A DNA stretch of 64,000 bases from a bacterium (GTDB lineage Bacteria > Patescibacteriota > Saccharimonadia > Saccharimonadales > SZUA-47), in NCBI GenBank assembly GCA_030427445.1, contig JAUIBQ010000003.1:1931-65930 (forward strand), read 5' to 3'. The position numbers and the translations under genes are program-made. The notes beneath the pieces are model-generated. The model had not been told where the DNA came from. It did no database searches and worked only from the letters and a program-made list of their open reading frames with translations. Positions 3,908 through 16,809 of the stretch are shown piece after piece. How positions within the stretch are numbered: the stretch's first letter is position 1; each line of letters opens with the position of its first letter.

Positions 3908-5118
3908 AAAGTGCCTTTGATTTGCTTCCAGCGTTTTGACTGTCGTACGAGCGAGCTGGCATCTTCGGGATTTTTAAGAAGAAGTTTGACTGCCTCTTCA
4001 GCAAACACACCGTTTTGCGAGCCTTTACATAAAATAATAGTTTTATCCGATCGTGCATACGTCGCAAGTAGACTTTCTATAGCCTCAGCTGCTTCTTTGG
4101 GAGTGTCGCTGCGCACTACGTTACACCCATTTTTTTCTGCGCTCTTTGCAGTATGCGTGTTAGCTTCCTTGCCGAGCGTAACCACAAGATCAAGCTTCGT
4201 TTTATTACAGTACTCACCAATTTCTCTGTGCATTGAAGCGCTCGAACCACCCAACTCGTTCATACTGCCAAGCATGACTATTCGGTGAGTTGCTGGCACA
4301 GAATATAAATACTGGATTGCCGCGATGACTGCTTCGGGCGATGAGTTATACGTGTCATCAACCAAAGTAGACCCGTTTTTACCCTCATACTGGCGCATTC
4401 TCCCAGGAGGAGACTGAAATGTGATAACACCGTTTTTAACTTGCCCCATGTCTAATCCTTCGTGTTTCGCAATCCATAGTACAGCACCGAGTGCATCGTA
4501 GCTATGTTCACCGATGACTTTTAGCTCCTCATGCAGAATACCGTTCTCCGTAATAGACGAGGAATCGTAGTGAAACAGCTCTTTATTTTTTACAAGTTTT
4601 AAGTACGCACTATCTACCATCTTTTTGTTTACTAATACAGTGTCCGAGAACTGCTCAACTGCTAATTCTTCTCGAGCAACGGCATCGATCGTTTTAAAGT
4701 TCTCCATATGCTCAGGCGCGACGGCGGTCACCACTGCGATATCTGGTTGTAGCCATGCAAACTGCTCGATATCTCCCGGTCTATCTGTCCCAAGCTCCAG
4801 AACAAAATAATCAAAGTGATTCTTGGAGAAATAACTCATATATAATGACTTAAGAAGTAGCACCGCCCACGAAAACGGGTTCTTGGCATTCTTTGGTAAA
4901 TCATATCCAAGCACCGAAACAGCAACACCAAGATTAGTGTTATAGTTGTGTCTCGTCGAGCGAACCGAAACATTTGCTGACTTTAATACATGCGTAATAG
5001 CTTTTGTAGTGGACGTTTTACCTATTGAACCGGTTACTACGATGATTTTGGCAGGTGACACACGACGAAGATACTTTTGAGCTAATTTGCGAAGTACTAG
5101 TTCAAAAAATCCTGTCAT
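3892..5118 (-). CDS. murF: UDP-N-acetylmuramoyl-tripeptide--D-alanyl-D-alanine ligase-like (MurF-type Mur ligase, short N-terminus)
   Basis: 408-aa ORF with VTGSIGKTSTTKAI, LELGTDRPGDI, VTAVAPEHMENF, VDDTYNSSPEA and GSMNELG motifs. Confidence 0.7.
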   Translation of the reverse strand: MTGFFELVLRKLAQKYLRRVSPAKIIVVTGSIGKTSTTKAITHVLKSANVSVRSTRHNYNTNLGVAVSVLGYDLPKNAKNPFSWAVLLLKSLYMSYFSKNHFDYFVLELGTDRPGDIEQFAWLQPDIAVVTAVAPEHMENFKTIDAVAREELAVEQFSDTVLVNKKMVDSAYLKLVKNKELFHYDSSSITENGILHEELKVIGEHSYDALGAVLWIAKHEGLDMGQVKNGVITFQSPPGRMRQYEGKNGSTLVDDTYNSSPEAVIAAIQYLYSVPATHRIVMLGSMNELGGSSASMHREIGEYCNKTKLDLVVTLGKEANTHTAKSAEKNGCNVVRSDTPKEAAEAIESLLATYARSDKTIILCKGSQNGVFAEEAVKLLLKNPEDASSLVRQSKRWKQIKGTFWTTA

Positions 5119-6207: not shown

Positions 6208-7302
6208 TTATTCTTGGACGGTGACTGTGTCTCCGATTCCGAAACCTAAATCAACAAGCTGATTCATGTTCGCCGGAGAAACTCTCACACAAGCGTGAGA
6301 GGGACGAGAAACATCACCTTGATGAATCGCAATCCCGCCATCGAAGAAACGTGCATTACCCATTGATCCAGCAGGTCCACCTAGAGTCTGAGAAGCATAG
6401 TCTGGTCCTTCAGTTCTGTACACTTGGTTCGTTCCAACTCTTGTATGAGCTCTACCTTTGTACAGATATCCGTCTTTTTCATAGGTATATATTCGGTCAT
6501 CTCCATGGGATATTCTTGTCTGCATGACAAGCTCACCGCCGTCGTAAGCCTTCAACGTGTCGTCACTTTTATCGACAATCACCTTGTCTATATCTACATC
6601 CTTATCCTCAACCGATATAACAGGTGCTTCCTTCTGAACTCCAAGAGCTGTTAACGTAACACTTCCTGCCAAACAATCAGACTCCCCAAATTCTCTTTGC
6701 TGAAACTCAGCAAACCCGAGGAGCGTTCTAGGGCCTATGATACCGTTTGCATTTCCGACATTTACCCCATTGCTGTTAAGTGCTTCCTGGACAGCTATCG
6801 CTTCAGTTCCATTATCTAGTAATAAGTCACCGTCAGAACCTGGGAGAACATCTGCAGCCCAAGTAGTTAGGCGTATTTCTTCACAAGCCTCAGTAGCATT
6901 TACAGATGCCGATTGCTCGACCTTAAGCTGGTCACTTTCACCAGCAAATGCATCGATCCCTTGCGCTTTTTCAGCTGCTAGTTGCGTAATTGCCCCTGCG
7001 TAGCCACATATCCTTGTGTTTGCATCTAGAGCACCGATAACTTTCAAATCTTGTTGTGCACGATAGACATGCTCTTGTTCGTACTGAGAGCTTACTTTAC
7101 CGTCAACTGTGATGCCTGGGTATCCTGCATCGACAAGCTCTTGTTCACTTGCTCGACTCACATTTTGCCCAACCTCAAACACTTCACATCCTTCAGGAAG
7201 AATTTTCGATGCATCATATTCGGCACCCACGTCTGAAGCGGCCATGCCATATGTAGCAGATGCTACTGCAGCCATTGTTGCTAGTTTGTTGAAATTTTTC
7301 AA
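6208..7302 (-). CDS. L,D-transpeptidase (YkuD domain) with peptidoglycan-binding repeats
   Basis: The C-terminal IHQGDVSRPSHACVRV is a YkuD-type catalytic His...Cys motif. The track ORF starts at 7338, but that ATG lies upstream of a strong -10. AGGAG (7313-7309) plus 6 nt plus TTG (7302-7300) gives MKNFNKLATMAAVASA, a signal-peptide-like N-terminus. Confidence 0.8.
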   Translation of the reverse strand: MKNFNKLATMAAVASATYGMAASDVGAEYDASKILPEGCEVFEVGQNVSRASEQELVDAGYPGITVDGKVSSQYEQEHVYRAQQDLKVIGALDANTRICGYAGAITQLAAEKAQGIDAFAGESDQLKVEQSASVNATEACEEIRLTTWAADVLPGSDGDLLLDNGTEAIAVQEALNSNGVNVGNANGIIGPRTLLGFAEFQQREFGESDCLAGSVTLTALGVQKEAPVISVEDKDVDIDKVIVDKSDDTLKAYDGGELVMQTRISHGDDRIYTYEKDGYLYKGRAHTRVGTNQVYRTEGPDYASQTLGGPAGSMGNARFFDGGIAIHQGDVSRPSHACVRVSPANMNQLVDLGFGIGDTVTVQE

Positions 7303-7328
7303 AATAAACTCCTGCCTATTATCTCTAT

Positions 7329-7357
7329 ATATTATCATACTATTTATATTTTGTCAA
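7329..7357 (-). promoter_or_regulatory. Sigma70-type promoter for the L,D-transpeptidase gene
   Basis: On the minus strand: TTGACA (7357-7352), a 17-nt spacer, then TAATAT (7334-7329). Confidence 0.55.
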
Positions 7358-7501
7358 TATGCTTGAGCTATAAAATAACCCCTGTTCTCACAGAGGTTAT
7401 CTCGGGTGTGCCCACCCAGGCTCACGGGCTGTTTTTTGTGTTGTTGTGTTTATTTTAAGCGGGGAGCCTGATACACCCGATTACATCTACTACTATCGCT
7501 T

Positions 7502-8044
7502 ATGCTTAGTAGAATGTCAAGATTCCTACAGTTTCAAGGATTTAGCCCTGCTAAGATATATGCAATGAATAAAAATCCGAATTTCTTAGCTGGCCGAGCA
7601 GTTGCATCTGTTGTTATACGGCGCTACGCTGGAAGTTTTACAATTCTTTTCGTCTCAATTAGTTTTGTAGGACTTGTAGTCACACTACTACTAGCCACAA
7701 TCTTCTCAGAGTGGTGGGCATTACTGATGGTGCTGTTTGTCCCACTACTAAGTATAAGTGGGCTACTTTACGTGGTCGTACGATTCATCTCATCGCGCAC
7801 AGCACCAAGAACACTAAGCAAGTCCGAACGAAAACAAACGCAAGAGTTTGTGAATGATGTACAGTACACCTACATTACTGCAAGAGCTATCAAAAGTTCG
7901 CCCACTGGAATTGGGCTTGCAGCTGCACTTGCGTATCTCACTGGTGGGAGGAATAAAGCTGTCAGATCCGTGATGAGTCCGATTGAGAGTTCAAAAGGAT
8001 TGAAAGAGAAGTTTGCAGACTTAGTAGAGCTTTTCTCACAGTAG
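7502..8044 (+). CDS. Hypothetical membrane protein
   Basis: 180-aa ORF with two to three hydrophobic helices. The real start is more likely the MNKNPNF methionine at 7565. Confidence 0.55.
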   Translation: MLSRMSRFLQFQGFSPAKIYAMNKNPNFLAGRAVASVVIRRYAGSFTILFVSISFVGLVVTLLLATIFSEWWALLMVLFVPLLSISGLLYVVVRFISSRTAPRTLSKSERKQTQEFVNDVQYTYITARAIKSSPTGIGLAAALAYLTGGRNKAVRSVMSPIESSKGLKEKFADLVELFSQ

Positions 8045-8593
8045 GGGCAGAACTGAAGGTGGGACCAGCTCAGCGACAGAAAGTCCCTGCTCATGTCGAG
8101 TCCTCACTTCAGTAGAGCTAGTAGTGAGCTGATCCACCTCTAGTATCTGAATATTATTGCCGTGGTCTTGTAGCTCATATCCAGGACGTTCAACAACCAA
8201 TAATGGCAAGTTTTCACGCAACCAATCCCCTCGCTCCCACTCGTGCATCGTATTTACACTGTCGCTACCGAATATCCATGTAAATGTAGCCTGAGGATTG
8301 TCTTCAGCCAGTCTTTCATAAGTAAGAAAGGTCTGTGACATCTCAGTATTTTTTAGTTCGACGTCGCATACCTGAGTTGTCGCCGTTGTGCTGAGACTAG
8401 CCAGCAATGCATGTGCGTAAGAGAGACGTTTTTCTACAGAAACTCCTATCTTTTTATCGTACCGTTCTCCACTTGGAAGTAACCAGAGCTCCATATCTCG
8501 CTCTACTGCATAGTCTGCGGCTGCTTGAGCAATTGCTTGATGAGCTACAGTAGGTGGATTAAATGCACCACCGTACACGATAACTTCTTTCAT
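8036..8593 (-). CDS. nadD: Nicotinate-nucleotide adenylyltransferase
   Basis: 185-aa ORF with N-terminal GGAFNPPTVAH (the GxFxPxHxxH nucleotidyltransferase motif) and NadD-like length. Adjacent NAD genes support the call. Confidence 0.85.
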   Translation of the reverse strand: MKEVIVYGGAFNPPTVAHQAIAQAAADYAVERDMELWLLPSGERYDKKIGVSVEKRLSYAHALLASLSTTATTQVCDVELKNTEMSQTFLTYERLAEDNPQATFTWIFGSDSVNTMHEWERGDWLRENLPLLVVERPGYELQDHGNNIQILEVDQLTTSSTEVRTRHEQGLSVAELVPPSVLPLL

Positions 8594-8612
8594 AGTGGTT
8601 GTCCTTTCTTAC

Positions 8613-8633
8613 TTAGTGTTCTATTGACACTAT
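8613..8633. promoter_or_regulatory. NrtR-type operator box 1 (TTAGTGT-N7-ACACTAt)
   Basis: The sequence is TTAGTGTTCTATTGACACTAT. It is part of a perfect 22-bp inverted repeat (8613-8634 versus 8647-8668) and contains a consensus TTGACA at 8624-8629. Confidence 0.65.
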
Positions 8634-8647
8634 ATATAATGTTTAGT

Positions 8648-8668
8648 ATAGTGTCAATAGAACACTAA
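8648..8668. promoter_or_regulatory. NrtR-type operator box 2 (exact inverted copy of box 1)
   Basis: ATAGTGTCAATAGAACACTAA is the reverse complement of box 1. It carries TATAGT (8647-8652), 17 nt from the plus-strand TTGACA, and the minus-strand TTGACA (8657-8652). Confidence 0.65.
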
Positions 8669-8681
8669 CTAGGAGAAAGCC

Positions 8682-10598
8682 ATGAATAAAAATTACGCTC
8701 CACAACAAGACCACATACGGGTTGCTGCCGCGACACCAGAAGTCAACATAAGTGATGTTGAAACAAACGTCAGTAGAATTAAACAGCTATACGAGCAAGC
8801 TGTAGAACAACATGTTACTCTTACTACCTTCCCCGAGATGTCTATCACCGGATATACGATTGGTGATCTAGTAATGCAAACCCAGCTTCTCGAAGATGCG
8901 CGCGAAGGTCTCGTTGAGCTCGCTGACCACACGAAAGATAAAAACGGTGCGATGATTGTAGGTCTGCCATTGCAGGTAAGAAATGGGCTGTACAACACCG
9001 CTGCCTTGCTTGCCGATGGAGAAGTAAAAGGAATCGTGCCAAAACTACATCTACCTACGTATCGTGAGTTTTATGAGAAACGCTGGTTTAGCGAAGGACC
9101 AGAAGAGCTTGAAGAAATTGAGGTTGGCGGTCAAACCACGACATTCGGTGCAAACCAGCTTTTTGAAGTAGCAGGTGCAGTTGTGGGTATAGAGATATGT
9201 GAAGATTTGTGGGTAGCGGACCAGAGAAACATACCACTCGTAACAAATGGAGCTGACATCATCGCCAACCCTTCTGCTTCTCCAGAAATCGCGACAAAAG
9301 GTGCATACCGTCGTGATCTCGTATCATTAACTGCCGGTAGAATCGCCGCTGGATATATCTACTCTGGAGCTGATCCAAGTGAATCAACAAGTGATATCGT
9401 CATGAGTGGTCACGCGCTTGTAAACGAGTTAGGTCGTCCGCTTGCAGAGCGCAAACCGTTCGATTTTAAAGCAGATCGGCTGACCATTGCTGACATTGAC
9501 CTCGGACATATTCGCTACCAACGAAGATTAGACAGCAACTTCCCTCAAGAAAGAAATTTTGCCACGCAAACGACTGAAGTCACCCGCACACAAGACACAC
9601 TGCAAAAAACAATTGACCCAGATGTGTTCATCCCGAAAGGCACGAGTGAAGAAGTCGCTGAGCGGCTTGAGGAAATCTTAACTATCCAAGCAGCTGGACT
9701 TAAAAAGCGCCTAGAGCACATCGGAGCTGAGCGAGTTATACTAGGCCTCTCAGGCGGGCTTGACTCTACACTTGCCCTACTGGTTGCTCTCAAGACAGCT
9801 CAGCTTATGGACAAACAGCCTGGCGACATCATAAAAACGCTTACCATGCCTGGTATGGCCAGTAGCGATCGCACTCAGAGCAACGCAACACGACTTGCCA
9901 ATAGTCTAGGCATCCCAAACGAAGAAATCCCTATCAGCTTCCTCGCGCAACATCAGCTTGAAGCCATCGGCCACGACACGCAAACACAAGATGTAACGTA
10001 CGAAAACACGCAAGCGCGACTTCGCACCAGCTTGCTGTTCAACAAGGGAAACAAAGAAAAAGGTATCGTGCTAGGCACGGGTGACTTGAGCGAAATCGCA
10101 ATCGGCTGGAGCACATACAATGGTGACCATATGTCAGGATACAACGTAAATGGGTCTATACCTAAAACACTCGTGCGACATCTTGTGGCTCATGGTCGAG
10201 ACACACTCGTCGATAACCAAGTGGCATATGAAATCTTGAGCGACGTACTGGATACGCCTATTTCTCCTGAGCTCACCAATGAAGTTGATGGTAATATCTC
10301 TCAGCATACTGAAGATATCATCGGACCTTACGAGCTTCACGATTTCTTCCTCTATTACCAAAATAGATGGGGTGATGCGCCCGCAAAAATTGCTTATCTA
10401 GCAAAGGCTGCGTTTGGTGAAAAATACGAAGCTGAGGAAATCGAAAAGTGGCTAGGAGTATTCACGACTCGCTACTACGGTAACCAATGGAAGCGCAACG
10501 CAATGCCAGACGGACCAAAAGTCGACACAGTCTCAATGAGCCCAAGGGGCGATTTACGGATGCCGGCAGATGCAACTCTCCCACAAAGCATGCTATAG
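8682..10598 (+). CDS. nadE: Glutamine-dependent NAD+ synthetase (CN-hydrolase domain plus NAD synthetase domain)
   Basis: 638-aa ORF. The N-terminal nitrilase-like domain contains ICEDLW. The C-terminal PP-loop is GLSGGLDS. AGGAG lies 7 nt upstream of the ATG. Confidence 0.9.
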   Translation: MNKNYAPQQDHIRVAAATPEVNISDVETNVSRIKQLYEQAVEQHVTLTTFPEMSITGYTIGDLVMQTQLLEDAREGLVELADHTKDKNGAMIVGLPLQVRNGLYNTAALLADGEVKGIVPKLHLPTYREFYEKRWFSEGPEELEEIEVGGQTTTFGANQLFEVAGAVVGIEICEDLWVADQRNIPLVTNGADIIANPSASPEIATKGAYRRDLVSLTAGRIAAGYIYSGADPSESTSDIVMSGHALVNELGRPLAERKPFDFKADRLTIADIDLGHIRYQRRLDSNFPQERNFATQTTEVTRTQDTLQKTIDPDVFIPKGTSEEVAERLEEILTIQAAGLKKRLEHIGAERVILGLSGGLDSTLALLVALKTAQLMDKQPGDIIKTLTMPGMASSDRTQSNATRLANSLGIPNEEIPISFLAQHQLEAIGHDTQTQDVTYENTQARLRTSLLFNKGNKEKGIVLGTGDLSEIAIGWSTYNGDHMSGYNVNGSIPKTLVRHLVAHGRDTLVDNQVAYEILSDVLDTPISPELTNEVDGNISQHTEDIIGPYELHDFFLYYQNRWGDAPAKIAYLAKAAFGEKYEAEEIEKWLGVFTTRYYGNQWKRNAMPDGPKVDTVSMSPRGDLRMPADATLPQSML

Positions 10599-11280
10599 TG
10601 ACACTATGTACGAAACCGAGTATGTTCCACCTACAGTAACTGTCGACGGTGTGATATTTCAAATCATTGACGGCGTACTGTATGTCGCATTGATTAAGCG
10701 TAGCGCTGAACCGTTTAAGGATAGCTGGGCTCTACCTGGAGGCTACAACGCCGCAGGTGAGACGACGCTTGAAGCACTTGAGCGCATCGTGAAACGTAAA
10801 GCTGGTATATCTATCAAAAAACAGACAAAGTTTGCTGAACAGCTATTTACGTTTGACACCGTAGCACGAGATCCACGAGGCCATGCGGTATCAGTAACCT
10901 ATATGGCTTGCGGGCTCGATATTTCTCCGCAGAACTCGTCAGAGCAAACACAGTTTTTCCCTGTAGATAACTTGCCAAAACTTGCGTATGACCACAAAGA
11001 TATCATTACGTACGCTCATGAACGACTTATTTCAAAGCTAAGCTACACAAATGTAGTTTACTCATTGTTGCCAGAGAAGTTCACGATGACAGCACTGCAG
11101 ACAGCCTACGAAGCAGTGTTCCAGCGGGAGCTAGATAAGAGAAACTTCCGGAAGAAGTTTGCACAACTCGACTTAATTAAAGAAACAGACGAGATGTTTA
11201 AAGAAGGTGCACACCGCCCTGCTCGGCTTTACACGTTTAAACAAAATACGCTCCAAACGCTTGTCAGGAGCTTTGACTAG
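10570..11280 (+). CDS. nrtR: NrtR-family transcriptional regulator (N-terminal Nudix-like domain plus C-terminal winged HTH)
   Basis: Nudix-fold N-terminal half (VIFQIIDGVLYVALIKR...WALPGGY). The C-terminal half, LQTAYEAVFQRELDKRNFRKKF...RPARLYTF, is typical of NrtR wHTH domains. The probable true start is the ATG at 10606 (MYETEY), 7 nt after the nadE stop. Confidence 0.75.
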   Translation: MQLSHKACYSDTMYETEYVPPTVTVDGVIFQIIDGVLYVALIKRSAEPFKDSWALPGGYNAAGETTLEALERIVKRKAGISIKKQTKFAEQLFTFDTVARDPRGHAVSVTYMACGLDISPQNSSEQTQFFPVDNLPKLAYDHKDIITYAHERLISKLSYTNVVYSLLPEKFTMTALQTAYEAVFQRELDKRNFRKKFAQLDLIKETDEMFKEGAHRPARLYTFKQNTLQTLVRSFD

Positions 11281-12244
11281 CAATTAACTGAGCGAAGGCT
11301 TTTCCAGCTGTAACTAATCTTTCACTCTGCTGAAGCTGAGTGATGTCAACTCCAGGATCTTCATCAGGATGCTCACATACCCACATACCTGCGATTAATG
11401 CCGCTGTACTGTCAGTATCCCCGCCTTCAGCTATAACTGCATCGATAAGCTCGTTGAATGGCGCACCTCTATTTCTGTCATAAGTCGCATATGCTACTGC
11501 TTGCACACACCACGATGCGAAAGACTCTTCAATATCATCATAGACATCATTTCCTAAATCGTGAGAGCGAATAGCCCGTGCAATTTTGCTATGTAGTGTC
11601 GATACTTCGTCAAAACGTTTCGTATGAGCTTCAGAAGCATACCAAGCGATATTTGACAGTAGCCTGTCATCATCACCCTTTATCAGTGTACGTAATATAT
11701 CTGCATGTGTTCTCGCATGAGCCATGCTCTGAAAATTACAGTGTGTGAGAGTTGTTGAATCATACACTGCGTGTAATCCGATATCTCTAGCGTCTGTACT
11801 GTTCGGGTTATGCTCATTAAAAATAACTAGTGGAGTCAGCCTCATAAGCGGTCCACAACCCATGGATTCTTCTTCACCTAGCCTAGCAAGATCACGCTTT
11901 GACATCGTTTCATCTACTTTTTCAATTGCTCGTTTCGTCGCACCACCCCAACCAGCATCCGACGTATCCATTTCAGTTCGTAGCCTATGTGCAAGATTCA
12001 TTAAGTTGAAACTTCTCGCAGTTGCAAGACTCTCCATCATCGCAAGTGTGTGCTGGGTGTCATCACTCCACGTGCCGACAGGCATACCTTGAAAATCAGG
12101 GAAATCTGGAGAGTGTACATCTGGTGCAATAAGCTCTGAAACCACGCCACCCAATTCCTCTATTTGCTGCTTTGTCTTTGCCTCATACGGTAAACCCTTT
12201 GCGTCTGCATATGCAGTTGTTGTTGCCAGATGATCATACTTCAT
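11264..12244 (-). CDS. ADP-ribosylglycohydrolase family protein
   Basis: 326-aa ORF with WSDDTQHTLAM near the N-terminus and GGDTDSTAALIAG near the C-terminus. These are the two metal-binding signature regions of the ARH/DraG family. The start overlaps the upstream gene stop by 4 nt. Confidence 0.75.
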   Translation of the reverse strand: MKYDHLATTTAYADAKGLPYEAKTKQQIEELGGVVSELIAPDVHSPDFPDFQGMPVGTWSDDTQHTLAMMESLATARSFNLMNLAHRLRTEMDTSDAGWGGATKRAIEKVDETMSKRDLARLGEEESMGCGPLMRLTPLVIFNEHNPNSTDARDIGLHAVYDSTTLTHCNFQSMAHARTHADILRTLIKGDDDRLLSNIAWYASEAHTKRFDEVSTLHSKIARAIRSHDLGNDVYDDIEESFASWCVQAVAYATYDRNRGAPFNELIDAVIAEGGDTDSTAALIAGMWVCEHPDEDPGVDITQLQQSERLVTAGKAFAQLIASQSS

Positions 12245-13116
12245 GCTGCCGTCTCCTCTCGAGTTAATGGTGGGCTTAGTTTTAATCTTTCACTAATATC
12301 TATGACATTAAGCAGTCGCTTCTCGTTGATATTCGTCCATTGCCCACCATTTGGAGATTGTTCAAGCTTCGGTGCCGTAATCATTCTCTCTTGTTTAACT
12401 AAATCTATATCATAAGGGTACACCATCCTCATCCAAGATAAATACTCTCGTACATCATTTGGGTTTTCGGGGTTACGCCTTGTGTACTCGATAATTGAAC
12501 AGTTTTTCATGTCTTGTGACTTATCGTTATCAAGTGCTACCAACTCTTCAGGAAGCATTCGCTCGATTAAATAACGATTTACAGATATAAATTCACCATG
12601 AGCAACAACGAGTACGCTCCCATCAGATACATCTCGGTGATACGTACCAAACGTATCACGTGCTCGCATCTGTACATCCGACAAGCTCTCAGCCCCATTC
12701 AACCCAGCGTAGAATGGGTTATTTTCTTGTGCGGTTACTGCAAACGGGAATTTTATTTTCCGTTCATCATACGGCGTCGCACCATACTCACCCCAATCGC
12801 GCTCACGAAAGCGATCATCGATATACCAATCTATCTTCGCTAGTCCACAAATATGTAATGCTGTCTCAGAAGCGCGCTGAAATGTAGATGCGTACCTCCT
12901 ATCAAAATCTTCAATCGGCATGATATTTTCACGAATCCACCTCCCCGCCATCTTTGCTTGCACGATACCCATAACTGAAAGTCGTTGCTCCCAGTCTGGT
13001 CGTGCATAGACTTCGTCATGATTTGGATGAATCTCGCCTTCTCGTTCTGCTTTATGTACGAGGTTCGCTTCAGACTCACCATGTCTCACGAATACTAATC
13101 TCTCTGGCATACTCAT
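12241..13116 (-). CDS. Histidine phosphatase family protein (phosphoglycerate-mutase-like)
   Basis: 291-aa ORF with LVFVRHGESEAN (the RHG catalytic motif) and a later VVAHGEF. It has a ~90-aa C-terminal extension with no recognisable motif. Confidence 0.7.
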   Translation of the reverse strand: MSMPERLVFVRHGESEANLVHKAEREGEIHPNHDEVYARPDWEQRLSVMGIVQAKMAGRWIRENIMPIEDFDRRYASTFQRASETALHICGLAKIDWYIDDRFRERDWGEYGATPYDERKIKFPFAVTAQENNPFYAGLNGAESLSDVQMRARDTFGTYHRDVSDGSVLVVAHGEFISVNRYLIERMLPEELVALDNDKSQDMKNCSIIEYTRRNPENPNDVREYLSWMRMVYPYDIDLVKQERMITAPKLEQSPNGGQWTNINEKRLLNVIDISERLKLSPPLTREETAA

Positions 13117-13150: not shown

Positions 13151-13171
13151 TTAGTGTTGACATTACACTAA
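13151..13171. promoter_or_regulatory. NrtR-type operator box 3
   Basis: TTAGTGTTGACATTACACTAA has perfect 7-bp palindromic arms around N7. It contains TTGACA (13157-13162), a candidate -35 for pncA. Confidence 0.65.
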
Positions 13172-13192
13172 GTAAGATATACCATATACTTG

Positions 13193-13213
13193 TTATTGTC
13201 AATATGACACTAA
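13193..13213. promoter_or_regulatory. NrtR-type operator box 4
   Basis: TTATTGTCAATATGACACTAA has one arm mismatch. Its reverse strand carries TTGACA, a candidate -35 for the divergent phosphatase operon. The box centre is 42 bp from the box 3 centre. Confidence 0.6.
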
Positions 13214-13231: not shown

Positions 13232-13900
13232 ATGAACAATAGAAAAAACACAGCACTAGGAATCATCGATGCGCAGAGAGGGTTTATGCCTGCTGCTGAA
13301 GGTGAGCGACTCGGTTTAGATGGGTTTGGTGAGCTGCCCGTACCAGATGGAGATACCGTGGTCTCCGCCCTTCAACCACTTATTCGTACACTGATGTCTG
13401 ATGAAACAGCAGTCGTCTTCACCACTCAAGATTGGCACCCAAATGGTACAGCTCACTTCGACGAGCAACCAAACTTTAGAACTACGTGGCCAACTCACTG
13501 TGAGCAAGACACCGACGGTGCAAAACTTCATCCCCACCTTGAAGGCGTGACAGCAAATGCCTTTTATAAAGGTGATGAGGTGCTTGCTAGAGGAGAGGAT
13601 GACACAAGTTATAGCGGATTTAACGCTAGAAGTTTTGAGGACGACACTGCCCTTCCTGAATTCCTGGAGAATAAAGATGTCCGTACGTTAATAGTCGCGG
13701 GGCTAGCATTAGATTACTGCGCTAAAGCAACTGCAATCGATTTCAAAACGAAAACGAACATGGACGTCGTGGTACTGACAGATGCGACAAAACCCGTTGC
13801 AGAAGAAACTGGCAAACTCGCTGTTGCAGAAATGCTTGAGCTTGGCATCCGATTCATGACCGTCGAAGAAGTCATCCAAGAGCTAGAAATGGAGGGTTGA
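13232..13900 (+). CDS. pncA: Nicotinamidase (isochorismatase family)
   Basis: 222-aa ORF with GIIDAQRGF (catalytic Asp region), QDWHP (metal site) and LALDYCAKAT (catalytic Cys). GGAGG lies 7 nt upstream of the start. Confidence 0.85.
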   Translation: MNNRKNTALGIIDAQRGFMPAAEGERLGLDGFGELPVPDGDTVVSALQPLIRTLMSDETAVVFTTQDWHPNGTAHFDEQPNFRTTWPTHCEQDTDGAKLHPHLEGVTANAFYKGDEVLARGEDDTSYSGFNARSFEDDTALPEFLENKDVRTLIVAGLALDYCAKATAIDFKTKTNMDVVVLTDATKPVAEETGKLAVAEMLELGIRFMTVEEVIQELEMEG

Positions 13901-13901
13901 G

Positions 13902-15164
13902 ATGGAAACGCTAGCTCAACAAAACGAACAAACACCTACGATTAGTACAGGGCTCGACTACTACAAGCCAACAATGAGTCAGGTTCAGTTTCTTAAACAC
14001 CCAAACGCCGATGTCTCTTTCACCTTAAAAAACAGGGGTAAAAACCGTCTTGCAGATCATGTTGATGTAGATGAGCTGACTACGAGGCTCGGTGAATTTG
14101 CACTTGGATGGCAAGATGTCGAAGTTGAATACCTTGCAACTCATGAACGACGGGACGGACAGCCTTTATTTGATGCCTGCTTCCTTGACTACTTGCGAGA
14201 AAATCAGCTTCCGCCAGTTGATGTACGCGTCGACGATGAGACGGATGACATCTCAGTAGAAACAACCGGCAAATGGCCACTTGTCACATTTTGGGAAACT
14301 GTCGTTATGAGCGAAATTAATGAACTATACTTTGAAGACTACATTGCGAGGAACGGCATAGACAAAGAAGAGCTGTTTGTTGAAGGCAATCGTCGACTAA
14401 CTGAGAAAATTGAACTTCTAAAATCACGCCCTGATATAAAATTTGCTGAGTTTGGTACACGACGGCGATTTAGCAGAGAGTGGCAGCGACACGTAGTTGA
14501 GCGGCTAAAGAACGAGTGTCCAGACAATCTTATCGGTACATCAAATGTAGCATTAGCCCAAGAGTTTGATCTCATGCCTATCGGAACTTACGCTCATGAG
14601 ATGCCAATGGTCTACGGAGCACTTGCTCAAAATGAAGACTACAGCCCGTTAGCCGGGCATGCATGGATGATGCGCGACTGGGAAGAAGTCTATGGAGACA
14701 ACCTATCAACTGCACTAACCGATACATACACTGATAACTTTTTCTTCGCTGAATTCACAGAAGAACAAGCAAAGCACTGGGCCGGCCTTCGACATGATTC
14801 TGGAGATCCTATCGCATTCGGTGAGAGAGTTATCGACTTTTACCACAGTCAGGGCATTGATCCAACAGAAAAGACAATCGTTTTCAGCGATGGACTTGAT
14901 ATGGAGACAATCCTCGAGATTGCTGATCATTTCAAAGACCAAGTGAACATCATATTCGGCTGGGGCACCACACTGACAAATGATTTAGGCTTAAAACCAA
15001 ACAACATCGTCATGAAAGCCACAGAAGCTGACGGCACTGGGACGGTGAAACTAAGCAACGAACCCGGTAAACACACTGGGGCCCCTGAAAATGTAGCAAG
15101 ATATCAGTTAGACGTCGAATATCGTAAACAAGCTCCAAAAAAGAAAGAACGGGTCGCAGTATGA
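13902..15164 (+). CDS. pncB: Nicotinate phosphoribosyltransferase
   Basis: 420-aa ORF with FGTRRRFS and HSGDP-type motifs. It starts 2 nt after the pncA stop. Confidence 0.85.
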   Translation: METLAQQNEQTPTISTGLDYYKPTMSQVQFLKHPNADVSFTLKNRGKNRLADHVDVDELTTRLGEFALGWQDVEVEYLATHERRDGQPLFDACFLDYLRENQLPPVDVRVDDETDDISVETTGKWPLVTFWETVVMSEINELYFEDYIARNGIDKEELFVEGNRRLTEKIELLKSRPDIKFAEFGTRRRFSREWQRHVVERLKNECPDNLIGTSNVALAQEFDLMPIGTYAHEMPMVYGALAQNEDYSPLAGHAWMMRDWEEVYGDNLSTALTDTYTDNFFFAEFTEEQAKHWAGLRHDSGDPIAFGERVIDFYHSQGIDPTEKTIVFSDGLDMETILEIADHFKDQVNIIFGWGTTLTNDLGLKPNNIVMKATEADGTGTVKLSNEPGKHTGAPENVARYQLDVEYRKQAPKKKERVAV

Positions 15165-15871
15165 AAGAGAAACTAACTGAGCGACGTGAAGCAATGAGAG
15201 AACATTGCCTCGAGATAATCGAACAGTCGTTAGCTGATTTCGACCCGTACGAAACAGAGCGATACAGTGGAGATGCGTCTACTGTTCCTGACGGGCCTTG
15301 GAACGTAGGGTCAAAGGAACCAATCTCGCCAAAAATAAAAGACAACTTAAGTGACTATGGGTGCCATTTTGATGATGAGTGTAAGCCAATTCACCCGTGG
15401 ATAGATGGTCTTTTAAAAACTACTGGAGTGGCTACAGGGACCGGACAATACTGGAACTGGGGGCCAAACTACACAGCTGACCCTATCGTCATCGCTAACT
15501 TAGATGATCCGCAGCTATTGCTAATAAAAAGAAGGAATAATCTCAAATGGGCTTTGCCGGGTGGATTTCTCGAACATGGTGATGATGCCGAAATGACAGC
15601 TCGAAAGGAAGCAAAACAAGAAAGCGACCTAACTCTTCCAGTGTACGAAGGGCTGGTTGTTTACGATGGGATAGTTGCTGATGAGCGAACAACTGCTCAT
15701 GCGTGGGCTCACACAACTGCCCTGCTCTGGATATTGGATGAAACTGTTGACGTAGTAGGGGGTGATGATGCTCTCGATGCTCAATGGTTCGATGTCAAGG
15801 AGCTCCCTAAACCACTCCATGGCTCTCACCAAAAACTAATTGAATTTGCGCTGCAGGATATAGGACTATGA
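15161..15871 (+). CDS. Nudix hydrolase, NUDT9-like ADP-ribose pyrophosphatase
   Basis: 236-aa ORF. YWNWGPNYTADPIVI resembles the WGPNxxADP signature of NUDT9-type ADPRases. The Nudix box is GGFLEHGDDAEMTARKEAKQES. There is a 4-nt overlap with pncB. Confidence 0.7.
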   Translation: MKEKLTERREAMREHCLEIIEQSLADFDPYETERYSGDASTVPDGPWNVGSKEPISPKIKDNLSDYGCHFDDECKPIHPWIDGLLKTTGVATGTGQYWNWGPNYTADPIVIANLDDPQLLLIKRRNNLKWALPGGFLEHGDDAEMTARKEAKQESDLTLPVYEGLVVYDGIVADERTTAHAWAHTTALLWILDETVDVVGGDDALDAQWFDVKELPKPLHGSHQKLIEFALQDIGL

Positions 15872-16809
15872 TCGAGCGACTGCCTAATCACCAACAAGCG
15901 TTCCTGGCCAATCGCTATCCAGAATTATCTGAACACCCTGATGACTCTGGTGGGCATATGGCCTACCATCGTTTGCTCTTGGCTCATCCTGAGTCTGATG
16001 AATCAGTATTCATCAAAGCTCACGACCCATCACTTCTTAGAGAAAAGTGGAGACAAGCGGAGATGTTGGCTTTCCTAGAAAAAGAAGCAAGAGTGTATGA
16101 ACATCTGAGGGGTCACCAGTTTTCTCGTATTCCTGAGTATATTGAATTTGATGAAAACATACTCGCATTGAGCGGGATGAGTGTCTCAAATGGCTGGTAT
16201 TGGCGAGCTCCGGCTGATGAACTGATGCAAGCCCACTACGTCCAAGATGTACTTACAGCTCTAGATGAACTCGAGCCACTTACGCCTCATACGCCTGAAG
16301 CAGGAGACGAAATCTCCATCGATATTTTCTATAATAACGGATGGGATATCCTCCGCAACACAGACGCAGACGAACTCGTTGAAACAAATATTGCACGCTG
16401 GGGCAAGGATCTACACCCAGAGACGGCACCACTGGCTCGGAGTCTCGTTGCGAACATTTCAGACTTCTCATTAAAACGAGCTGGAGTCATACCTACTGCA
16501 TTCAATCATCATGATGCGCGTCAAGCAAATATCGCTTGGCATCCCGAACACGGAGCTAAAATCGTCGATTGGTCATGGGCAGATGCTGGACTAAGTGGTG
16601 GCGACAAAACAATGTTCCTACTCGATCTTCATAAGTCAGATATAGATGTAACACCCTACATTGGTTACATAAATATTGACTATGCGAAGCTGGTGTTAGG
16701 CTATTGGCTCGCCCGTAGCAACACCCAGCACATGGAAGGTAACCATCAAGTCCGTATGCAACAATTTATCAGTGCAGTAAAAGCAAGTGAGTTGCTAGCT
16801 CAGTTTTAA
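15868..16809 (+). CDS. Phosphotransferase (APH/choline-kinase fold), substrate unknown
   Basis: 313-aa ORF with the catalytic-loop-like HHDARQANIAW and the metal-binding IVDWSWAD. There is a 4-nt overlap with the Nudix gene. Confidence 0.6.
   Translation: MIERLPNHQQAFLANRYPELSEHPDDSGGHMAYHRLLLAHPESDESVFIKAHDPSLLREKWRQAEMLAFLEKEARVYEHLRGHQFSRIPEYIEFDENILALSGMSVSNGWYWRAPADELMQAHYVQDVLTALDELEPLTPHTPEAGDEISIDIFYNNGWDILRNTDADELVETNIARWGKDLHPETAPLARSLVANISDFSLKRAGVIPTAFNHHDARQANIAWHPEHGAKIVDWSWADAGLSGGDKTMFLLDLHKSDIDVTPYIGYINIDYAKLVLGYWLARSNTQHMEGNHQVRMQQFISAVKASELLAQF

Follow-up and report, generated by a model that had tools for sequence, protein, structure and literature searches.

The question raised by this locus is what a perfect inverted repeat is doing between two genes for the last steps of NAD synthesis: whether it acts as a nucleic-acid structure, as a pair of operators, as promoter sequence, or as the last two at once. 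The window, by which we mean the whole 64,000-nucleotide stretch of Saccharibacteria DNA that was analysed, contains nadD and nadE as divergent genes separated by an 88-bp spacer that runs from the nadD start codon (8593, minus strand) to the nadE ATG (8682). Reading the sequence directly, the left arm of the repeat at 8613–8634 is TTAGTGTTCTATTGACACTATA and the right arm at 8647–8668, TATAGTGTCAATAGAACACTAA, is its exact reverse complement, with 12 nt separating the two. The perfect inverted repeat is 22 bp in length, and a repeat search lengthens it to 28 nt with 93% complementarity (8607–8634 and 8647–8674). The initial annotation of this DNA had reported the 88-bp spacer, which agrees with the two start codons, and the position, length and 12-bp separation of the arms, which are correct to the base. 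It had also described each arm as a 21-bp imperfect palindrome of the form TTAGTGT-N7-ACACTAt, and a pattern scan with TTAGTGT-N7-ACACTAA bears this out, finding a single mismatch in each arm, at the innermost position. We refer to the two 21-bp sites as box L (TTAGTGTTCTATTGACACTAT, 8613–8633) and box R (ATAGTGTCAATAGAACACTAA, 8648–8668).

The genes around the repeat were assigned by HMM searches with Pfam and NCBIfam/TIGRFAM profiles, and the searches agree with the initial annotation in placing nadD and nadE on the two sides of the spacer and a Nudix–winged-helix protein of the NrtR type after nadE. The nadD product (8036–8593, minus strand; 185 aa), a nicotinate-nucleotide adenylyltransferase, matches PF01467 and TIGR00482 (E = 5e-29, below the equivalog cut-off). 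The nadE product (8682–10598, plus strand; 638 aa) is a glutamine-dependent NAD synthetase that scores 703 bits against a cut-off of 473 with NF002730 and contains CN_hydrolase and NAD_synthase domains. The nrtR gene (10606–11280, plus strand) starts 7 nt past the nadE stop codon, and therefore nadE and nrtR are probably co-transcribed and nrtR is probably autoregulated. Beyond nrtR, the searches identify an ADP-ribosylglycohydrolase (ARH; 11264–12244) and a His_Phos_1 phosphatase (12241–13116) on the minus strand, followed on the plus strand by pncA (13232–13900), pncB (13902–15164), a second Nudix protein (15161–15871) and an APH-like kinase (15868–16809). The NAD-gene context of nrtR is therefore a divergent nadD and nadE–nrtR pair next to a divergent ARH–His_Phos and pncA–pncB pair, and this synteny is kept in relatives.

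The initial annotation had left the NrtR family assignment to an HMM search, and both parts of the 224-aa protein are found by such a search. The winged helix matches PF21906 (NrtR_WHD) with 88.6 bits against a cut-off of 27, and the Nudix-fold domain matches PF00293 (E = 1.6e-10, residues 39–146 of the longer ORF) and can be aligned with its counterparts in 5bs6 and 3gz5. The 224-aa frame agrees with the homologues, which are 224–225 aa in length and, where named, come from Candidatus Saccharibacteria, as do the related contigs. Solved structures matched over the full length are BtAraR (5bs6, E = 2e-32) and Shewanella NrtR (3gz5/3gz6, E = 1e-26). The profile NF050029, ‘ADPR responsive transcriptional repressor’, is also matched with E = 4.5e-41, but the score of 141 bits is below its 400-bit equivalog cut-off and, judged by these profile scores, the window NrtR is a member of the family and not an NF050029 equivalog. 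Its Nudix signature is degenerate, with R60-I-V-K-R-K where REUxEE is expected. Degenerate Nudix motifs are typical of non-catalytic sensor NrtRs (PMC2330246, PMC6800001), and the loss of the catalytic motif is consistent with a sensor role for the window NrtR.

The protein also allows a prediction of the DNA sequence that it reads. In the BtAraR–DNA crystal, a dimer covers 25 bp, and residues K179, R180, N181, K184 and R205 define GTGT in AAGTGT-N7-ACAC (PMC4666351). All five are identical in the window NrtR (K178, R179, N180, K183 and R204), the sole contact residue that differs being H203 in place of BtAraR K204, and the DNA-contact positions are invariant in 44 Saccharibacteria orthologues. 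Because the GTGT-reading residues of BtAraR are kept, the window NrtR is expected to read precisely the GTGT/ACAC cores of the boxes. The operator rule given in the initial annotation, a 21-bp palindrome with a GT-N7-AC core, is the one stated by Rodionov et al. 2008 (PMC2330246).

To score such sites, we used a position weight matrix made from 134 boxes of related loci, with the window's own genome left out. The training sites were picked by their similarity to the consensus and the bit scores are in that respect partly circular, but with this matrix box L scores 23.4 bits and box R 24.2 bits, and the four boxes of the window (starting at 8613, 8648, 13151 and 13193) score 23.0–26.0 bits, compared with 8.7 bits for the runner-up in the 64 kb and 15.2 bits for the best site in 30 shuffled windows. 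The initial annotation had counted four boxes, and all are present. They are the only high-scoring boxes in the window, all of them lie in two divergent NAD-gene spacers, and a chance origin is excluded. We also searched 60 loci (787 kb) from other phyla, which were fetched solely through NrtR homology and in which shuffle-based enrichment is not circular. These contain 32 boxes with at most one mismatch where 0.2 are expected from shuffles, and 10 of the 32 are located within 250 bp upstream of nrtR. A fifth site in the window, TTAGTTTTAATCTTTCACTAA at 12276–12296, was treated as chance. It falls within the 3′ end of His_Phos, 32 nt before the ADP-ribosylglycohydrolase gene begins, has two mismatches that both fall in the GT/AC core, scores 8.5 bits, which is below the shuffle maxima, and is absent from two relatives (L081 and L082).

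These results bear on which protein uses the boxes. The binding of NrtR is a prediction from sequence, and NadQ, another transcription factor of NAD genes, shares the C-terminal winged-helix domain (PDB 7q91, E = 2e-14), so one could suppose that the boxes are operators for another regulator, such as an NAD-responsive factor encoded elsewhere in the genome. We regard this as very unlikely: in loci from different phyla that were retrieved solely by NrtR, the box accompanies nrtR and often lies directly upstream of it; its GTGT-N7-ACAC core is the motif read by conserved NrtR-family residues in the crystal structure; and it obeys the published rule for the family. We therefore take NrtR to be the probable ligand of the boxes in what follows.

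The boxes also coincide with promoter elements. The predicted nadE–nrtR promoter (8624–8652, plus strand) has a −35 element TTGACA at 8624–8629 and a −10 element TATAGT at 8647–8652, with 17 nt between them, and the predicted nadD promoter (8629–8657, minus strand) has TTGACA at 8657–8652 and TATAGT at 8634–8629 with the same 17-nt spacing. The initial annotation had proposed both, and a promoter scan returned both with exactly these coordinates and 11 of 12 matches each. All four predicted promoter hexamers of the spacer fall within the two NrtR boxes, in a stretch of 56 bp. In box L, the −35 of the nadE promoter is combined with the −10 of the nadD promoter, and box R has the −35 of the nadD promoter together with the −10 and the predicted start site of the nadE promoter. 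The left-arm 11-mer TTGACACTATA serves three functions on paper: it provides the nadE −35, it forms the inner half-site for NrtR, and its complementary strand carries the nadD −10. The inner T to A change is the sole departure of each box from the family consensus, and it is the change that gives TATAGT its essential A at position 2.

From the positions of these elements we infer that nadE–nrtR transcription starts at ∼8659 on the plus strand, with a leader of 23 nt that contains AGGAG (8671–8675), and that nadD transcription starts at ∼8622 on the minus strand. The promoters had been described as face-to-face, and this is wrong: because the starts at ∼8659 and ∼8622 point outward, the promoters are divergent and the transcripts would not overlap. 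With start sites predicted in this way, the nadD and nadE–nrtR promoters are overlapping, or interdigitated, divergent promoters.

To follow the boxes and promoters in other genomes, we assembled 80 loci from one-genome-per-species contigs by NrtR alignment and added ten loci of closer relatives by exact protein look-up; individual loci are given L numbers here. Among the closer relatives, five lineages with 70–82% NrtR identity, the arms of the nadD–nadE spacer are conserved whereas the 12-nt centre and the flanks have diverged. Box L is kept in L081, L082, L085, L088 and L090, and box R in L081, L082, L085 and L090 but not in L088/L089, where it is degenerate. The four loci with both boxes (NrtR identity 70–82%) have them exactly 35 bp apart, centre to centre. 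More distant Saccharibacteria (60–65% identity; L001, L003, L004, L009 and L010) also have two boxes with an embedded TTGACA, at a spacing of 47–50 bp, and across lineages the spacing ranges from 33 to 51 bp. Absence of the boxes upstream of NAD genes in related genomes, which the initial annotation had named as evidence against its reading, is thus not observed, and the boxes are conserved there.

The promoters are conserved along with the boxes. The left-arm 11-mer is invariant in all six aligned sequences, both hexamers of the nadE promoter are conserved in the spacer alignment, and so is the nadD promoter, whose −35 in L081 is TTTACA. In L088/L089 (70% NrtR identity), nadE begins where the right box would be and this box has decayed for that reason, but both −35/−10 pairs are kept with 17-nt spacing. 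In the 3990–4040 region of this locus, the nadE ATG (4036) is located exactly 7 nt after the −10 TACACT, which suggests that the nadE mRNA is leaderless. Since L088/L089 have lost the right box yet keep both promoters, two boxes are not obligatory. A separate observation concerns the gene behind the spacer: in L081, L085 and L090 the nadE position is occupied by a short NAD synthase (∼275 aa) without the CN_hydrolase glutaminase domain, which is presumably ammonia-dependent and which sits behind the same two-box spacer.

The conservation data also bear on whether the promoters have been correctly assigned. The NrtR half-site TAGTGT is itself −10-like, and any N7 that ends in TTG will make TTGACA with the ACA of the half-site. 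NrtR might therefore bind the boxes while TTGACA and TATAGT are mere by-products of the operator, with transcription starting elsewhere or from other elements. This is improbable in our judgement. The 88-bp spacer leaves no room for other promoters with normal leaders, and the left-arm TTGACA is invariant, in contrast to the freedom that the family matrix otherwise shows across N7. The L088/L089 spacer retains both −35/−10 pairs at exactly 17 nt despite its decayed right box. Consensus-type promoters are enriched in the window, with six found at 11 or more of 12 matches where 1.6 are expected, two of the six being the nadD/nadE pair, and the pncA spacer has the same design of a −35 within a box and conserved −10s. 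The reading in which the four hexamers are genuine promoter elements is the more probable one. Elsewhere in the window, two minus-strand promoter-like sites with TTGACA and a 17-nt spacing (within 7329–7520; the sites begin at 7520 and 7357, 10 of 12 matches each) are located upstream of an L,D-transpeptidase (YkuD) gene at 6208–7338, in keeping with the impression of a genome with sigma-70 promoters of the consensus type.

Perfect identity of the arms is peculiar to the present genome and is not a maintained property, because the arms of L081, L082 and L090 differ from each other at one to three positions. These inter-arm differences, which are mostly in the N7 positions, also argue against concerted evolution or a recent duplication of one arm. 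As judged from the alignment, the symmetry reflects two sites that are each kept to one consensus rather than selection for a palindrome as such.

We consider it extremely unlikely that the repeat matters as a nucleic-acid structure, whether as a DNA cruciform or as an RNA hairpin for attenuation, termination or transcript stability. Were both arms transcribed, the spacer would fold with −39.4 kcal/mol (z = −8.1), but both predicted start sites lie inside the arms and neither mRNA would have both of them. In L085, one position does change on both arms together (left T to C, right A to G). Over six relatives, however, 17 unpaired cells are found versus 2 compensatory ones, 11 of the 22 pairs depart only through unpaired cells, and the covariation score of the arms is no better than that of slid controls. 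Divergent genes would not require a terminator between them, and no T-run follows the stem on either strand. The right arm is missing from L088/L089, and in many loci the 21-bp box is found singly, with no partner. A hairpin role was ruled out on the combined grounds that pairing is without compensatory upkeep, terminator features are lacking and the arms occur singly elsewhere. A search of the spacer against Rfam found nothing above threshold; the only matches were sub-threshold miRNA precursor models, which rules out a known RNA family, including the NAD riboswitches.

The operator and promoter arrangement recurs at the second box pair, which is located in the 115-bp spacer between the His_Phos_1 gene (minus strand) and pncA (plus strand). 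Box A (TTAGTGTTGACATTACACTAA, 13151–13171) is a perfect consensus site that scores 26.0 bits and has the −35 of the predicted pncA promoter at its centre. Box B (TTATTGTCAATATGACACTAA, 13193–13213) has one mismatch, scores 23.0 bits and contains the −35 of the predicted minus-strand His_Phos–ARH promoter. The predicted pncA–pncB promoter (13157–13185, plus strand) consists of TTGACA, 17 nt and TACCAT, the −10 of the relatives being TATCAT, and the predicted His_Phos–ARH promoter (13174–13202, minus strand) consists of TTGACA at 13202–13197, 17 nt and TATCTT at 13179–13174, where relatives keep TAnnnT. Between the boxes are two back-to-back −10 elements that are conserved in relatives, and each box again spans elements of both promoters, the −35 of one and the start region of the other. 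Six relatives all carry box A unchanged, including its central TTGACA, and the TTAGTGTTGACAnTACACTAA form is widespread in Saccharibacteria; box B is conserved in relatives and is always 42 bp from box A. The layout is that of the nadD/nadE spacer, two boxes and two promoters, with 7 bp of additional length (13151–13213).

The genes on the two sides of this spacer form the rest of the candidate regulon. On the basis of the boxes and gene order, His_Phos–ARH (11264–13116) is probably an operon under NrtR control with a link to ADP-ribose turnover, with the same gene order in L081 and L082, and pncA-pncB-Nudix-kinase (13232–16809) is a probable NrtR-controlled salvage operon, with the same order in L085 and L086. 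The stop codon of pncB overlaps the start codon of the Nudix gene that follows. The product of this gene is 236 aa in length; its Nudix domain is C-terminal and its Nudix box non-canonical. The APH-like kinase that comes next (313 aa) is just under the Pfam cut-off. This Nudix and kinase pair follows pncB in L085 and L086 too. In L081 and L082, a PnuC-like transporter takes its place after pncB, and L081 also has a NadR-like AAA_28 protein. The composition of the salvage operon thus appears to vary between lineages.

We think it likely that NrtR dimers occupy the two boxes and thereby shut down both of the overlapping promoters, that of nadD and that of nadE–nrtR, and that nrtR is autoregulated as a result. 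In this mechanism, NrtR, encoded two genes downstream of the repeat, would act on sigma-70-type promoters. One dimer would bind to each box and cover the −35 of one promoter plus the −10 and start of the other. If the footprint is ∼25 bp, as in BtAraR, only ∼10 bp of the core region would be left uncovered. Because each box covers elements of both promoters, either dimer alone would block RNA polymerase at both. The nadD gene and the nadE–nrtR operon would be repressed together, with nrtR repressing its own gene, and the second box pair would allow repression of His_Phos–ARH and pncA-pncB-Nudix-kinase. When the effector builds up, NrtR would be released and both promoters would open, although polymerase could be present on only one of the two at a time because the nadD and nadE–nrtR promoters overlap.

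In published work, NrtR sites either overlap promoter elements or are located after the promoter and ahead of the start codon, and ADP-ribose suppresses DNA binding by NrtR in vitro (PMC2330246). The inducer here is most likely ADP-ribose, a product of NAD consumption, because it is the established effector of NAD-type NrtRs and because the regulon includes genes for ARH and for a Nudix protein. Members of the family need not share an effector, and BtAraR, the closest solved relative, responds to L-arabinose and not to ADP-ribose (PMC4666351). There is no support for cooperativity between the two dimers, which may well be absent, because the spacing varies from 33 to 51 bp and a distance of 35 bp does not correspond to whole helical turns. 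Models involving helical phasing or cooperative binding as a tetramer were dropped in view of these spacings across lineages.

A more far-reaching reading can be put forward only tentatively. The 56-bp cassette could be a co-evolved minimal bidirectional switch in which polymerase chooses between nadD and nadE–nrtR, and its NrtR–operator module could be shared with DPANN-labelled contigs. If so, one dimer on either box would silence both genes, and promoter choice would couple the nadD to nadE–nrtR expression ratio. The design would be one that is kept across a subclade of Saccharibacteria and relaxed to a 47–50-bp spacing in others, and it would provide a natural model for the compaction of regulatory regions in ultra-small genomes. 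The DPANN-labelled NrtR–operator pair would imply that a complete module has been transferred between domains.

Several contigs labelled as archaeal (Woesearchaeota or Methanosarcinales; L036, L041, L044, L045, L058, L079 and also L027) encode NrtR homologues of 40–46% identity. TTAGTGT-N7-ACACTAA boxes are found in such contigs directly upstream of nrtR or pncB (L045 at 7967, L036 at 7943 and L044 at 881), and L045 has a full NAD-salvage cluster with pncA-like, NadR-like, ARH and NAD kinase genes. These contigs could reflect inter-domain transfer of the regulator–operator module, or they could be mis-binned.

Saccharibacteria and other CPR bacteria are for the most part uncultured, salvage-dependent epibionts in which very few regulons of transcription factors have been described, and a literature search found no NrtR regulon for Saccharibacteria. 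The locus offers a clean predicted regulon, with a defined operator, four sites and about ten genes for NAD salvage, the last two steps of NAD synthesis and ADP-ribose turnover. The boxes and their embedded hexamers are also strong indirect evidence that these bacteria use canonical TTGACA/TATAAT promoters. The regulator family, the operator rule, the target genes, autoregulation and the control of divergent pairs are already known, and knowledge of NrtR and of NAD regulation is unchanged.

The control logic has precedents outside the family. In Tn10 tetR/tetA, with two operators, and in E. coli bioA/bioBFCD, with BirA, one repressor on palindromic operators in a short common control region shuts two overlapping divergent promoters, in the tetR case including its own. 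The bio promoters are truly face-to-face, with overlapping transcripts. Both systems differ from the nadD/nadE locus in having unrelated protein families and effectors, and transcript overlap of the bio type is not predicted here.

Within the family, the regulons listed in Table 1 of PMC2330246 include nadD, nadE, pncAB and draG, with divergent pairs such as nrtR-nadD<#>pncA-pncB-nadE. The nearest known case is the divergent nrtR-nadD2 and pncA-pncB-nadE pair of P. aeruginosa, where experiments have shown that NrtR binds the shared intergenic region and that an nrtR mutant derepresses both sides (PMC6363681, citing Okon 2017). Known NrtR regulons and the predicted one at this locus have in common a Nudix–winged-helix repressor in a NAD cluster, a 21-bp GT-N7-AC operator that overlaps promoters, nadD, nadE and pncAB as targets, one intergenic region serving two divergent operons, and control of the regulator's own gene. 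The link to a draG-like ADP-ribosylglycohydrolase is also found in the Streptomyces NrtR regulon. The best solved relative, BtAraR of Bacteroides thetaiotaomicron (5bs6/5dd4, PMC4666351), has an identical K, R, N and K in its helix and R in its wing, an AGTGT-N7-ACAC operator core, and tandem pairs of 21-bp sites that each bind one dimer. It differs in being an L-arabinose sensor for arabinose utilisation genes, and its tandem sites, with a separation of 3 or 42 bp, act on one operon, with no divergent pair. Unlike the known NrtR regulons, the present one is hosted by Saccharibacteria (Patescibacteria/CPR), and two operators and two complete promoters are predicted within 56 bp. The sole distinctive feature of the locus is this compaction, with all four predicted promoter hexamers inside the two operators, an example of promoter and operator sequence in double duty. 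The analysis as a whole is a well-supported computational identification of an NrtR regulon and its operator in Saccharibacteria.
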